Positions 30,001 through 33,000 of a stretch of DNA of 62,589 nt are shown here, one piece after another; within the stretch, counting starts at the first letter, position 1, and each line of letters opens with the position of its first letter. The stretch spans positions 1 through 62,589 of the forward strand of contig JBLNDL010000006.1 in NCBI GenBank assembly GCA_050261575.1, given 5' to 3'. The position numbers are program-made. This DNA comes from Sphingomonadaceae bacterium (GTDB lineage: Bacteria; Chloroflexota; UBA6077).

Positions 30001-33000
30001 TCCAACTACGTGCAGATCCTGGGCACCTGGCTCCACCGGGCGCACGACATGCTGGCCGATGCCGTTCCCAAGACCTCTCTCTTGCGGGACTACAGGTCCA
30101 ATCCCAGCCACTTCGGGGGATTGGAGGCCAGCGTGGAACGGGCAGGGGTGAACGCGGGACGGGTGAACCTTCGGACCCGCAGGGAGTACAACAGCATCTT
30201 CGTGAGCCCGTGGGGCTCCTTTGGGGATGCCCTTGCCCGGCAGGTGCCCGATGTGGCGCAGGCGGATCTGTCGAAGGTGAACAGGGCGGTTTTGGCCAGG
30301 GACATGGCCGAGGACATGGTGTACACGCTCCTACACGAGCTTGTCCACAATACCTATCGGATGGAGGACGGGCCTTTCGCCCAGGCTCTCCGGGCGGTTG
30401 TTCGTGAGCTGAGGCCCGTCAAGCGGGATCTCACCGCCGAGCTGGACGGCTACCTGCAGGGCGTTGTGGACAAGGAGATGGAACCGCTCTACACTCATTA
30501 CCGGACGGTTCGGGGCGCTGGACCGTCCGACATGGGGGACTACCTTGGAGAGGGGTATGCGGCACAATTCTACAGTGAGCGGGAAATTGCGCGACGAGGA
30601 GCGGGCGGAGGCGGAGAAGGCGGGCTTCTACCTACTGAAGGCGGCCATGTATCCCCGTCCCCAGGCACCACACGTGGATTTGCCGGCCCTGAGGGGCTAC
30701 TCCAAGGGGCTTCTGGAGGAGGGGTTGGACGCTCGCCGGATCTACAACGAGGCACGAGAGCTGACCATTCGAGTTGGCAGGCCGGCCCCGCCAACGTGGG
30801 AGGAGTTGTGGGGGGAACTGCCCCCTCCCTCCGGGCAGTAGCCCAACCGACCTCGGCACCGAACTGGGTCACCCTCCAGCGTTCCAGGGATGTCGCGACA
30901 GAGAGGTCTCTCGCACCCTCGCCCGCCAAGGCGCAGCTACAGACGGCTAGGCAGCAGGCACTCCTCCGCCGCTGGCAGAACGCTGCGCCTGAGGTGCAGG
31001 AGCGGATGTGGAAGAACCCGGAGGTGCGTGAGGCGGTCATGCAGAATCTATCAAGAGAGCTTGCCCGGATACGTCAGGGTGACGCGCCTTGGGGCAAGTA
31101 GCACGCGGGGCCAGGCAACAACCTGGCCCCGTTTCTTTTCTGCGGGGAGATCGCTGACCCTACAACTGAACCATAGACATCGTTCTGTGTGTTGAGTAAG
31201 CCAGCCATGACTGCTCCTGTCTGCACGCAGCAGGCCGCGCGGATGTTGACAGCCCGGCCTACTTGCCGCAGACTGTGGCCGCAATCGAATACATGGCTAT
31301 CCAGAGCGGCGCACTCGCGTCCGGCAACCTGGCGGCGACCGCCAAGGTGCCCGTCCTCAGTCTGAGGAGATAGGCCCGATGAGGGAACCAACGGTCGCGC
31401 ACCCCGCCCGCGCGCGGGTCTTTTCGTTTGCGCCGTCTTCTACGGCTCATGTTGCAAGGCCGGGGGTGTGGGCGAGCGCAGGGTCGTATCGGACGGAAGC
31501 GCCTTGTTGAGCGGGAGAGGCATGTCCGTGACCAGTGAAGACGAGTCCGACGCGGTAACGGTAGTCACTTACGGCGGGGAGAGGTGGCTGGCCAAGGTGA
31601 GAGTGTGCAAGACCTGCGGGAGGCACAGGGGAGCTATGTACAGCCATACCAACAGTACGAGACCCATCACCTGCCTCTGTGATGGGCGACCGTGCCCCGT
31701 ATGCGGCAAGAACAGGCTGCCCAAGCCAGGCACCGAGGTCATGGATGGACACGGCAGGATATGGCATATCCCCTGGTTCCGCGGCATGGGCGGCTGTCCC
31801 GAGTGCGCCGCCAAGCGTCCAACCGTCAAGACCTACGACGAGGTGTTGATGTCGGGCGCCGGGGACGGAGACACCATAAGGTGGCTGGAGGAGCTGTTCG
31901 TTCTGGAAGAGCCGAAGGGGCCATACAGCGAAGGCTAGGCGTCACCAGGAAGATGAGGGGGTGCACGTTGTGCCTCTGGAGCCGATTTCCTTAGCCGATG
32001 CGCGCCGAAAATGGTATAATGACCTTGCATGGTTCTTTGCCGACACTGCGGCGACCTGCGTCTCATAGTTCCGCAGAGCGGCTGACTATACGGGGTGTAG
32101 CGCAGTTGGCAGCGCGCATGGTTTGGGACCATGAGGTCCCCGGTTCGAGTCCGGGCACCCCGACCATGTCTGGTGGTCCCCGGCCGCCTCGGAGTTCTGC
32201 CGGTCCGCGCCCCCGTCCATTCCTGAGTTGTCCCAACCCCCACTCCTCGCTTTCCCGATCCAATACATTGACATGCTTCGATATAGTGGTATCCTGGTAG
32301 CATGAAGCGAATCGGCATCGAGAAGCTGAACGACGGGTGCTGCGAGCGGCCGGGACCGCCGGGCGAATCCAGGTTCCCAAACCTGGACGAGGGCGCGAGG
32401 CTATTCCGAGCACTCGGCGACGAGACCCGCCTGAGCATCGTCAGGCGCCTCGCCGAGGAGGGCGAGTTGTGCGCCTGCGACCTGATCTGCTGCGACCTCG
32501 CCCAGCCCACCATCTCCCACCATCTGAAGGTGCTGCGCGAGGCGGGGATCGTCAACGCAGAGAAGCGTGGCCTCTGGGTCCACTACTCCCTCAACCGAGA
32601 AAGGCTCCGGGAGCTGCGGTCGTGGCTCCCGTAGATGCGCCGGAACATTCCTGCGCTCCTCGCCCTCCATCTCCAGGCAAGCATCGCGTCAGCGCCGCAC
32701 CCTAGCGTGGCACCCTCCAGCGAGCCTCGCCCTCGTGAACCATGCCTCAGGGCGGAGCCGGGGCACGTGGTGTGCCGTACCACGCTCCACCCCGGCGAAG
32801 GGTCGAGGGCCCGAGTCCGAGCTTCGACCGGCCACCGGGGTGCCGCGACGGCTGGCCGAGTCCGCGCAGGCTCGGCCTCTCGGGGTCCGCGGAGTCGAGT
32901 CGACACGTGGAGGTGCAAAGATGCATCGAGGGATGATGAGACCGCCGGGTTACCCGCTGATCCCGTTCCTGTTCCCAATCGGTGTCGTCCTCAGCCTGAT

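Follow-up and report, generated by a model that had tools for sequence, protein, structure and literature searches.

The window analyzed here, a 62,589-nucleotide stretch of a Chloroflexota genome (contig C6), contains what we predict to be a single self-contained transcription unit (31246-31938, forward strand), consisting of a putative promoter, a predicted SAM-I/IV riboswitch aptamer, an intrinsic terminator, and the gene of a small protein with eight conserved cysteines (Cys8). Because the pairing of aptamer and gene recurs in metagenome loci and, with a different aptamer and expression platform, in a distant Chloroflexota family (f25), predicted SAM control appears to be a conserved trait of the Cys8 family rather than an arrangement peculiar to the two elements of this genome. 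We favor, with a probability of roughly 0.6, a joint explanation in which the unit is SAM-controlled, the module is old and conserved, and its product is a zinc-stabilized binding or adaptor domain in island conflict or maintenance biology.

The Cys8 gene follows a predicted SAM-I/IV riboswitch

An earlier survey of this genome had placed a SAM-I/IV riboswitch at 31292-31401 on the forward strand, and this assignment holds: the segment scores 47.3 bits with Rfam model RF01725, for which the gathering score is 41.1. Exactly three RF01725 matches occur in the whole assembly, the others lying on contig C1 (3569-3674, reverse strand; 60.2 bits) and contig C37 (181-294; 51.1 bits), where metK lies downstream, again as the survey had it. 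All SAM-I/IV copies, including those of the metagenome contigs L013 and L014 (62.3 bits each) and L015 (48.5 bits), span the full model (positions 1-99). When 11 aptamers were compared, compensatory changes on both sides were seen at 14 of the 29 predicted pairs, with the pairs intact in the element copies; the alignment contains related sequences, and the count is therefore not an independent statistic.

Because a strong terminator-like hairpin (31105-31132, forward strand; 11 pairs followed by a T tract) ends the 693-aa gene upstream, the riboswitch unit would need a promoter of its own. From the sequence and from leader alignments, we read a promoter-like site at 31246-31274 (forward strand; TTGACA, 17 nt, and CAGACT), the -10 hexamer of which aligns with that of the metK, C1, and L015 leaders. 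This hexamer is weak, agreeing with the consensus at three of six positions, and a consensus promoter scan did not call the site. The expression platform that follows the aptamer is an intrinsic terminator (31403-31428, forward strand), composed of a 5-bp, all-G+C hairpin (31403-31418) and the T tract TCTTTTCGTT. It occupies the same place as the terminator of the metK leader in the alignment with C37, and a hairpin and T tract stand downstream of each SAM-I/IV copy. We note that the C6 stem has just 5 pairs and that shuffled sequence folds equally well (z 0.26). The gene itself (31522-31938, forward strand) is preceded by the ribosome-binding site GGGAGAGG, which together with the ATG start codon occupies 31513-31524 (forward strand; read from the sequence). 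From this arrangement, we infer that the C6 unit responds to SAM and that its expression is repressed by it. When SAM is plentiful, the aptamer would bind SAM, the terminator would form, and the Cys8 gene would stay silent; when SAM is low, transcription would read through, and the Cys8 protein would be made.

Aptamer and gene are paired in other Chloroflexota

The survey's finding counted only two instances of the pair, both in this genome, and gave the protein as absent from 300 other Chloroflexota genomes; neither statement stands. In 9 of the 10 loci with at least ~225 nt of readable upstream DNA, the Cys8 gene is directly preceded by a SAM-clan aptamer in the same orientation; this count was made over related loci that may represent three or four independent lineages, every one of them in Chloroflexota. 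The SAM-I/IV type precedes the gene in five loci, namely C6, C1, and all three metagenome loci (L013, L014, and L015); the module lies directly downstream of metK in L013 and L014, and the gene of L015 is frameshifted. The four testable loci of f25 all carry the pair with a P4-less SAM-I type. The RF00162 scores there are 39.6 (L021), 38.7 (L022), 46.0 (L023), and 46.4 bits (L025) against a cut-off of 44.4, so that two of the four matches, L021 and L022, fall below the gathering score. In these aptamers, P4 is cut to one residue, and the ribosome-binding site lies within the 3' strand of P1. The lineage of this genome would thus use SAM-I/IV with a terminator, and the distant lineage a SAM-I type in which the ribosome-binding site is masked. 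The protein branches of the two lineages are homologous, as hhalign indicates (probability 98%, E 1.5e-13). Because aptamer pairing recurs in such distant relatives, the Cys8 protein is probably made solely at low SAM.

SAM-clan aptamers are scarce in the genomes that carry the Cys8 gene, numbering one to three per genome. The sole RF00162 aptamer found in each of G484 and G438 precedes the Cys8 gene, and the one other RF00162 aptamer of G138 stands before an orphan 84-aa ORF rather than a metabolic gene. The Cys8 member of G551 (identical to P0010; E 7e-31), itself a counterexample to the survey's count of zero, has no Rfam match in the 225 nt upstream on its contig. The distribution of the family is patchy: within the class, 2 of 66 genomes have a member, and the four other genomes of the same bacterial family have none. 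The divergent branch was detected in 7 of 151 genomes from another order (six at E<=2.5e-22 and the seventh, G524, marginal at E 5.9e-4). Matches were also seen in 4 of 401 genomes of a phylum sample; two of these lie at E ~5e-4, and closer inspection led us to reject one of the two.

Several candidates were set aside. The genome-collection matches L004-L006 correspond to a DPCPVCGKN stretch of prolyl-tRNA synthetase, and the G372 match is a YgiT/MqsA-type finger. In G036 (L007), a SAM-I/IV aptamer is followed by a Cys-rich ORF in which just the first family motif is present (hhalign 14%), and this ORF was not counted. The 84-aa ORF of G138 resembles the Cys8 protein in its C-terminal tail, but BLASTP gives no alignment between them, and a search of 150 other genomes for its orthologue returned nothing beyond three marginal matches (E 0.003-0.009). 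We also note that the G327 match (E 5e-4) contains an internal stop.

The Cys8 protein is probably a zinc-stabilized binding or adaptor domain

The C6 gene encodes a 138-aa protein (P0001) with a conserved core at approximately residues 26-100 and a C-terminal tail that ends in GPYSEG. In agreement with the survey, the family gave 118 matches at E<=0.001 in 1.84 billion representatives, and the C6 and C1 paralogues are 42% identical over 85 aa. The conserved residues are eight invariant or near-invariant Cys together with His, Pro, and Phe, and the 75-residue core has the signature PxGLxxCxxCGExRG, CLCDG, CxxC, RPISN, HxPxF, and CxxC. The survey had also described the protein family as lacking a Pfam, PHROG, or PADLOC model, and wider searches agree. 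The best Pfam family shared among 52 members appears in 4 of them, always below cut-off; NCBIfam gave nothing above cut-off, and PHROG gave no match for the C6 ORF. PADLOC-DB 2.0 gave no match for five members (P0001, P0002, the G138 protein, P0015, and P0019), this library dating from 2023 and an undescribed system being possible. In a cluster look-up of 10 members, 8 of the 10 clusters were single-member and none was named. The family was absent from GenBank phages as searched by tblastn, as it was from the plasmid records, and an IMG/VR scan with a 10-member alignment found none.

The AlphaFold model of the C6 protein has a pLDDT of 85.7 overall and of ~97 over residues 10-100; that of the divergent f25 protein reaches just 61.9, too low for a structure search. 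Foldseek of the C6 model against PDB and BFVD returned nothing at E<=0.001, and the best VIA-align score against 48,161 chains was Z 3.1; because small zinc-held domains align poorly, such an absence of structural neighbors does not imply a new fold. A profile search of the family against PDB sequences gave at best a Cas12g zinc finger at E 0.0095, and the ESM Atlas search gave a top score of 0.83 and no usable match. The paired CxxC knuckles resemble those of the bL32, FmdB/CxxC_CxxC_SSSS, and YgiT/MqsA fingers, and scattered matches to zinc-ribbon and treble-clef families occur in one to four of the 52 members. None of these reaches cut-off, however, and the core differs from such proteins in having a 75-residue signature of its own. 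The protein probably holds two zinc ions, and it is most likely a zinc-stabilized binding or adaptor domain rather than an enzyme. Of 26 long relatives, 2 are fusions, one carrying an ADP-ribosylglycohydrolase and the other a polymorphic-toxin-type DSP phosphatase.

The unit lies at the end of a tRNA-integrated island

The C6 unit stands at the end of an island of ~23 kb, with tRNA-derived repeats at both ends, an adjoining tyrosine integrase, and foreign base composition. The left boundary is a displaced 5' part of tRNA-Pro (8877-8924, forward strand) that repeats 32090-32137 exactly over 48 nt, as the survey had described, and Rfam detects a partial tRNA here (8878-8943, 38.6 bits). The tyrosine integrase gene adjoins it (9059-10030, forward strand; Pfam Phage_integrase 5.9e-37, PHROG integrase 3.8e-45). 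Island genes have a GC3 of 0.73-0.81, compared with 0.89-0.94 (about 0.9) for the flanking host genes. A cargo block (10871-23314) encodes two HNH endonucleases, an AAA_25 primase/helicase-like protein, and DUF4145 and DUF4062 proteins (Pfam, PHROG), as well as a GmrSD_N/NsnA-like protein (15790-17217; PADLOC NsnA 1.1e-41), an IS DDE transposase (17740-18903, reverse strand; Pfam and PHROG), and a Type IIG restriction-methylase (19562-23314; PADLOC REase_MTase_IIG 1.8e-82).

The segment 25798-31101 may represent a second element, nested or in tandem, and contains, all on the forward strand, a second integrase (25798-26787; Pfam), a 269-aa protein without assignment, an M23 peptidase (28088-29020; Pfam), and the 693-aa protein (29020-31101), in the translation of which we read an HExxH motif. 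Given the IS insertion, an IstB fragment, and two integrases, the island seems to be composite and may have decayed. Capsid, portal, terminase, and tail families were absent from the 20 ORFs scanned with Pfam and PHROG, and the M23 peptidase matches only the peptidase domains of tail and lysis proteins; we do not, therefore, class the island as a prophage. The C1 island is bounded by a repeat in tRNA-Met, for which the survey gave 60 nt and we find 51 of 53 positions identical (989-1041 and 6252-6304). In this genome, two paralogous modules are carried on two tRNA-integrated islands.

The island leaders are related to metK leaders

The survey had proposed that the island leaders were copied from the host metK and that the elements thereby put a gene of their own under the host's SAM sensor. 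The homology that it reported is real: BLASTN to C37 aligns the C6 copy at 131 of 159 positions (82%) and the C1 copy at 156 of 196 (80%), the latter reaching the start codon and covering the -10 region, terminator, and ribosome-binding site. The predicted aptamers do lie in integrase-bearing, tRNA-flanked islands, but their recurrence beyond this genome does not fit an act of these two elements. Copying from the host metK is likewise unsupported because the element leaders match metK leaders from two other genera as well as they match that of this genome (C6: 78% to C37, 78% to G003, and 79-80% to G001; C1: 72, 74, and 71%, respectively). Orthologous metK leaders are themselves 84-87% alike. 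We read both island leaders as descendants of the metK-type leaders found in this bacterial family; with bootstrap values of 14-80, the leader tree does not resolve the branching, and we claim no donor.

The derived P3 segment of the C1 leader recurs identically in the Cys8-gene leaders of L013 and L014, as do two 1-nt deletions, so this leader would have traveled with the gene. The C6 leader, by contrast, has a metK-type P3, and its identity to metK leaders (78-80%) exceeds that to the leaders of other Cys8 genes (60-67%); a secondary swap with a metK leader by recombination is likely in this lineage, which would probably have undergone at least one such exchange. That metK leaders are duplicated in this bacterial family is indicated by the sister genome G001, which holds a 448-nt, 93% identical duplicate of its metK promoter, leader, and 5' codons, adjoining foreign DNA and an IS110-like transposase.

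Possible roles of the Cys8 module

We propose that the Cys8 protein probably acts in island conflict or maintenance biology under SAM scarcity, the aptamer-gene pair being an old conserved module in Chloroflexota. Defense or restriction genes lie near the Cys8 gene in C6, L013, G484, and G551, but such neighbors weigh little because islands in general often carry them. SAM is required by many restriction, BREX-like, and Hma-like defenses, and phages such as T3 overcome these defenses by destroying it, according to one report (bioRxiv 10.1101/2023.02.27.530186). The SAM-dependent systems beside the gene are the Type IIG restriction-modification protein (C6), an HmaC-like ATPase (L013), and restriction genes (G484 and G551). 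The module might thus be a SAM-depletion alarm, in which the Cys8 zinc protein serves as a back-up effector or regulator guarding these systems and an island gene silenced by a SAM riboswitch would turn on when an invader drains SAM. We consider this specific form unlikely; if true, it would be the first defense-related function triggered via a metabolite riboswitch. Alternatively, the protein could be a housekeeping accessory of SAM/methionine homeostasis, a factor for low-SAM conditions that cooperates with MetK or the methyl cycle; it might, for instance, regulate, act as a chaperone, or accept methyl groups at a zinc thiolate, and its island location would be incidental. The module lies right after metK in L013 and L014, and a role in SAM metabolism therefore fits at least as well there as one in conflict. 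Co-regulation through the same aptamer class, a remnant of the MetK N terminus just 5' of a Cys8-gene promoter, the host-like GC3 of the f25 genes, and the sole aptamers of G484 and G438 point the same way. The very patchy distribution (even within the bacterial family), two divergent paralogues on two islands of one genome, the position of the gene at island borders, a strain-variable breakpoint inside the gene between L013 and L014, and fusions to conflict-type enzyme domains nevertheless argue against it, as does metK being the only metabolic neighbor, and we regard a purely homeostatic role as a possibility, if a rather unlikely one.

The two remaining explanations deny the module its age or its function. 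If each island had recently captured the host metK leader for its own gene, the SAM link would be an accident of this genome. The 80-82% identity of both copies to C37, extending in C1 through the ribosome-binding site and start codon, the metK-like character of the C6 leader, and the duplication seen in G001 all suit such an event. It is distinctly unlikely, however, as the G003 and G001 leaders match the copies as closely as C37 does, the pair occurs in every metagenome locus and every testable f25 locus, the latter with the other aptamer type, and the C1 leader shares derived characters with L013 and L014. The aptamers could also be decaying, non-functional remnants of recombined metK leader fragments, with the ORF expressed regardless of SAM. 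Consistent with decay are the C6 score, only 6 bits over the cut-off, the short C6 terminator, the frameshift in L015, and the scatter of leader fragments and metK remnants across this bacterial family. Against it, all copies span the full model with pairs preserved by compensatory changes, terminators or ribosome-binding-site sequestration are kept at 60-75% leader identity, and conservation in two aptamer types argues for selection; we judge this explanation highly improbable.

Relation to known riboswitches

Few regulons are as well charted as those of SAM riboswitches, which control sulfur, methionine, or SAM genes almost exclusively. The C6 unit resembles the SAM-I/IV riboswitches of metK leaders (RF01725, clan CL00012) in its full-length match, its helices, and its terminator-type platform, and its leader is homologous in sequence to those of C37, G001, G003, and L013. 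It differs in that it lies on an island, not before a core gene, and precedes a gene without a recognized sulfur, methionine, or SAM link. Similarly, the f25 branch has RF00162-type aptamers like those of S-box (SAM-I) regulons but departs from them in its one-residue P4, in the placement of the ribosome-binding site in the P1 3' strand, and in regulating a Cys-rich protein. These regulons would thereby gain a gene family that has no name, domain model, or structural neighbor and over which predicted SAM control persists with either of two aptamer types and either of two expression platforms. An uncharacterized putative zinc protein would, in turn, gain a concrete physiological trigger, low SAM.

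Host-type RNA sensors that time the genes of mobile elements are also described for the glutamine riboswitch before ssrA in phage Melnitz and for a psbA-linked riboswitch in a cyanophage. The C6 case differs in its carrier, an integrase-type island in a tRNA gene without structural phage genes seen, in its predicted ligand, SAM, and in the conservation of the aptamer-gene pairing across lineages. Our literature search, in which the exact string "SAM-I/IV" could not be used, found no description of a SAM riboswitch that precedes such a protein or lies on an integrative island, although the print record may hold one. A riboswitch module on mobile islands beside SAM-dependent restriction systems, one that integrative elements can carry along with its gene and that can exchange leaders with the host metK, raises the question of whether mobile elements or defense islands read the methyl-donor status of the cell.

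Right boundary of the C6 island

The right boundary (32090-32166, forward strand) is formed by the second copy of the 48-nt repeat, which lies within an intact tRNA-Pro(UGG) gene (32091-32166), the sole tRNA-Pro(UGG) in the assembly. An extended -10-like element, TGGTATAAT, was read from the sequence at 32012-32020 (forward strand), 70 nt before this gene; the promoter scan, which requires a -35 hexamer, did not call it. The element is likely an island-supplied promoter for the rebuilt tRNA-Pro gene.

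A SAM aptamer and a Cys-rich protein gene are conserved partners

An Rfam scan of the window returned a full-length SAM-I/IV aptamer (RF01725) at 31292-31401 on the plus strand, which scored 47.3 bits (gathering score, 41.1). As the survey's finding had held, there are exactly three such aptamers in the assembly (103 contigs, 3.72 Mb), the others being located at C1 3569-3674 on the minus strand (60.2 bits) and at C37 181-294 (51.1 bits), where metK follows. On the 3' side of the C6 aptamer are a 5-bp G+C hairpin with a T tract (31403-31428), a ribosome-binding site, GGGAGAGG, and the ATG, at 31522, of a 138-aa ORF (P0001, referred to here as the Cys8 protein). 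Because a strong terminator (31105-31132) ends the preceding gene and a promoter-like site, TTGACA-17-CAGACT (31246-31274), aligns with the -10 regions of metK-type leaders, we conclude that the C6 riboswitch unit stands alone. The C6 aptamer RNA is an ordinary RF01725 member; what is new about it is its conserved partner gene and its carrier.

A metagenome scan using a four-member alignment of the family returned three loci, each closely preceded by a SAM-I/IV aptamer in the same orientation (L013, aptamer 5084-5191 and gene from 5260; L014, aptamer 1322-1429 and gene from 1498; L015, aptamer 1491-1605 and a frameshifted gene). When 401 genomes of the phylum were scanned, a weak family match was detected in the Chloroflexota genome G138, in an ORF that has the Cys domain at its C terminus and a SAM-I (RF00162-type) aptamer lacking P4 ahead of it. 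Used as the query, the G138 protein matched 7 of 151 genomes of its order, G138 included, six of them at E ≤ 2.5e-22 and one (G524) marginally (E 5.9e-4). Six loci of this branch were scanned with Rfam; two end 43-44 nt upstream, and the four testable ones all have an RF00162-type aptamer (39.6, 38.7, 46.0, and 46.4 bits; cut-off, 44.4). Profile-profile comparison indicated that the G138 branch is homologous to the Cys8 family (98% probability, E 1.5e-13). In this branch, the ribosome-binding site GGAG lies inside the 3' P1 strand of the aptamer, with the ATG within ~14 nt, and gene control is probably translational. The one exception is G551, which encodes the family member P0010 (E 7e-31); no aptamer was found in the 225 nt of upstream sequence present on its contig. 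Overall, a SAM aptamer is located upstream in 9 of 10 testable family loci, which amount to three or perhaps four independent lineages at a rough estimate, and the genomes concerned hold just 1-3 such aptamers each. The count covers Chloroflexota contexts, with ~110 other family members outside it. We conclude that the pairing of SAM aptamer and Cys8 gene is conserved, and this is our main new result.

SAM aptamers were also seen before other genes. In the order to which the present genome belongs, a SAM-I/IV aptamer in G036 (54.6 bits; locus L007, within C31 1501-2328) precedes a different Cys-rich ORF of 209 aa, which has only the LxxCxxCGxxRG motif start in common with the Cys8 family and matches no Pfam or NCBIfam family. 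Two further SAM-I/IV aptamers of this order (L009 in G006 and L011 in G008) have neither metK nor the Cys8 gene downstream within 1.5 kb. G138 has, at locus L031 (C1 1501-1861), a second SAM aptamer (48.7 bits), 87% identical to that of its Cys-domain gene, ahead of an orphan 84-aa ORF. The latter has a C terminus (a WLE..L helix, then PYSG) similar to the C6 protein's tail; BLASTP gave no alignment, and in 150 other genomes no orthologue of the ORF was found beyond three marginal matches (E 0.003-0.009).

Origin of the leaders

The C6 and C1 leaders had been described as copies of the host metK leader. The underlying BLASTN figures were reproduced (131/159 for C6 versus C37 and 156/196 for C1 versus C37, the latter reaching the start codon). 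Computed over promoter, aptamer, and terminator, the C6 leader is 78% identical to that of C37, 78% to the metK leader of G003, and 79-80% to that of G001, the last two being genomes of sister genera; the corresponding values for the C1 leader are 72, 74, and 71%. The metK leaders of the three genera are 84-87% alike, and no node of the leader tree was supported. Given these similar identities and the unsupported tree, descent from a metK-type leader of the bacterial family stands, but this genome's own leader is not demonstrable as the source.

The C1, L013, and L014 leaders have in common two single-base deletions and the same derived P3 segment, in which a G-C pair has been swapped for C-G in compensatory fashion; this leader lineage has moved together with its gene. 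The C6 leader has kept the metK-type P3 and shows only 60-67% identity to the remaining Cys-gene leaders, but the C6 protein is nearest to the proteins of those loci, which points to replacement of the C6 leader through recombination with a metK leader. Signs of such recombination are also seen in G001 and in L013 and L014. In G001, 448 nt covering the metK promoter, leader, and first ~65-70 codons are duplicated at 93% identity (L010/L030, C112 ~9660-10290; L012, C32 1-900). The truncated copy adjoins a foreign block encoding a RhuM-family protein and a 1683-aa protein, and the intact copy has a transposase end directly upstream, which we take to be IS110-like by the look of its C terminus. 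In L013 and L014, the aptamer-gene module is directly behind metK, and a 43-codon stretch (L013 4914-5042; L014 1152-1280) matching MetK residues 8-45, 53% identical to the adjacent metK, separates the metK stop from the second aptamer's promoter.

This genome has three metK-like genes (C37 358-1461; C93 37696-38829, minus strand; C70 72939-74081), all with host-like GC3, and the SAM-I/IV leader is found on the C37 copy only. Compared with a close relative of the C37 copy (82% identical to it), the C93 copy shows 48% and the C70 copy 39% identity.

The Cys8 protein and its possible role

An exhaustive HMMER search gave 118 family representatives at E ≤ 0.001, among which 8 reach E ≤ 1e-10. The family core (residues ~26-100) has eight invariant or near-invariant Cys residues and conserved His, Pro, and Phe residues; a C-terminal helix and a GPYSEG-like end are also present in the closest subfamily. 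In the 156-aa member P0005, an acidic stretch follows GPFSEG and closes with DDIPF, which presumably resembles the C-terminal tip of bacterial SSB. No Pfam family was common to more than 4 of 52 members, none scoring above the cut-off, and NCBIfam, PHROG, and PADLOC gave no match for the Cys8 protein. An AlphaFold2 model from a 52-row alignment (mean pLDDT 85.7; ~97 over residues 10-100) had no Foldseek neighbor in the PDB or BFVD at E ≤ 0.001, and its best VIA-align Z against 48,161 chains was 3.1. We infer that the gene encodes a zinc-held binding domain, produced only when SAM is low, both the zinc binding and the ligand response being part of that proposal.

The Cys gene sits at island borders. 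From metK through the aptamer to the first ~73 codons of the gene, the L013 and L014 contigs do not differ; beyond this they diverge, their proteins being 76% identical overall. In L013, a HmaC-like ATPase is encoded downstream. In G484, the gene adjoins a block of low GC3 that encodes an AAA_21/HEC-01A-like ATPase, an NsnA-like protein, and an MvaI/BcnI endonuclease; in G138, its neighbors are an HTH_17 protein and toxin-antitoxin genes; and in G551, its end overlaps a Type III restriction-enzyme-like ORF. Further, 2 of 26 longer relatives are fusions containing the full motif, one with an ADP-ribosylglycohydrolase and one with a polymorphic-toxin-type DSP phosphatase. Patchy occurrence of the gene, the presence of two paralogues on separate islands, and these conflict-type fusions weakly favor an accessory, conflict-related role over one in core metabolism, weakly because islands collect such genes anyway; we give an island or conflict role a probability of about 35%. 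A role in SAM homeostasis, which adjacency to metK keeps alive, seems somewhat less probable, and the remainder falls to other roles.

PMC9004378 describes riboswitches as rare in phages and reports a glutamine riboswitch ahead of phage ssrA, a host-type sensor used by a mobile element. Our literature search, in which the string 'SAM-I/IV' was not searchable, identified no publication dealing with a SAM riboswitch ahead of such a protein or carried by integrative islands. T3 SAMase is described as defeating SAM-dependent Type I R-M and BREX (bioRxiv 10.1101/2023.02.27.530186), which motivates our boldest reading, that the riboswitch-Cys8 module might report SAM depletion.

The C6 and C1 islands

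The exact 48-nt repeat reported on C6 was confirmed; its copies (8877-8924 and 32090-32137) frame 23 kb, of which the Cys gene is the last gene ahead of the right copy. Genes in the island have a GC3 of 0.73-0.81 versus ~0.9 in flanking genes and metK. They encode two integrases, an IS transposase, an IstB fragment, two HNH endonucleases, a Type IIG restriction-methylase, an M23 peptidase, an AAA_25 protein, DUF4145 and DUF4062 proteins, a GmrSD_N/NsnA-like protein, and two unknowns; no virion genes were seen among them. Directly upstream of the riboswitch unit, after the M23 peptidase and second integrase, a 693-aa ORF (29020-31101) has a metalloprotease-like HELVH (HExxH) motif and was matched by nothing in Pfam, PHROG, or PADLOC. 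Possibly, the right third of the island is an element of its own.

The right repeat copy is the 5' part of an intact tRNA-Pro(UGG) gene (32091-32166), the single copy among the 51 tRNAs of the assembly. In the sequence at 31939-32166 and 8877-8943, the island is located upstream of this gene and the repeat is the gene's 5' 48 nt. The island therefore provides the 5' half of a working tRNA gene and apparently also the promoter for it (TGGTATAAT, 32012-32020). Downstream of the Cys gene, no plus-strand terminator was found ahead of the tRNA, and transcripts reading through from the riboswitch unit could therefore extend into it.

On C1, the repeat reported as 60 nt exact is actually 51/53 identical and lies within tRNA-Met. 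The left end of this island contains a near-whole tRNA-Met pseudo-copy split into two parts (51/53 and 26/27 identical; 989-1100 versus 6252-6333), with ~32 nt between them that the intact gene lacks. Read from a GTG aligned with the metK start, the C1 ORF stays open for 272 codons, and an AGGAGG-N7-GTG site starts the 146-aa form listed in the public collection; the GC3 of the extension (0.67) is compatible with both forms.
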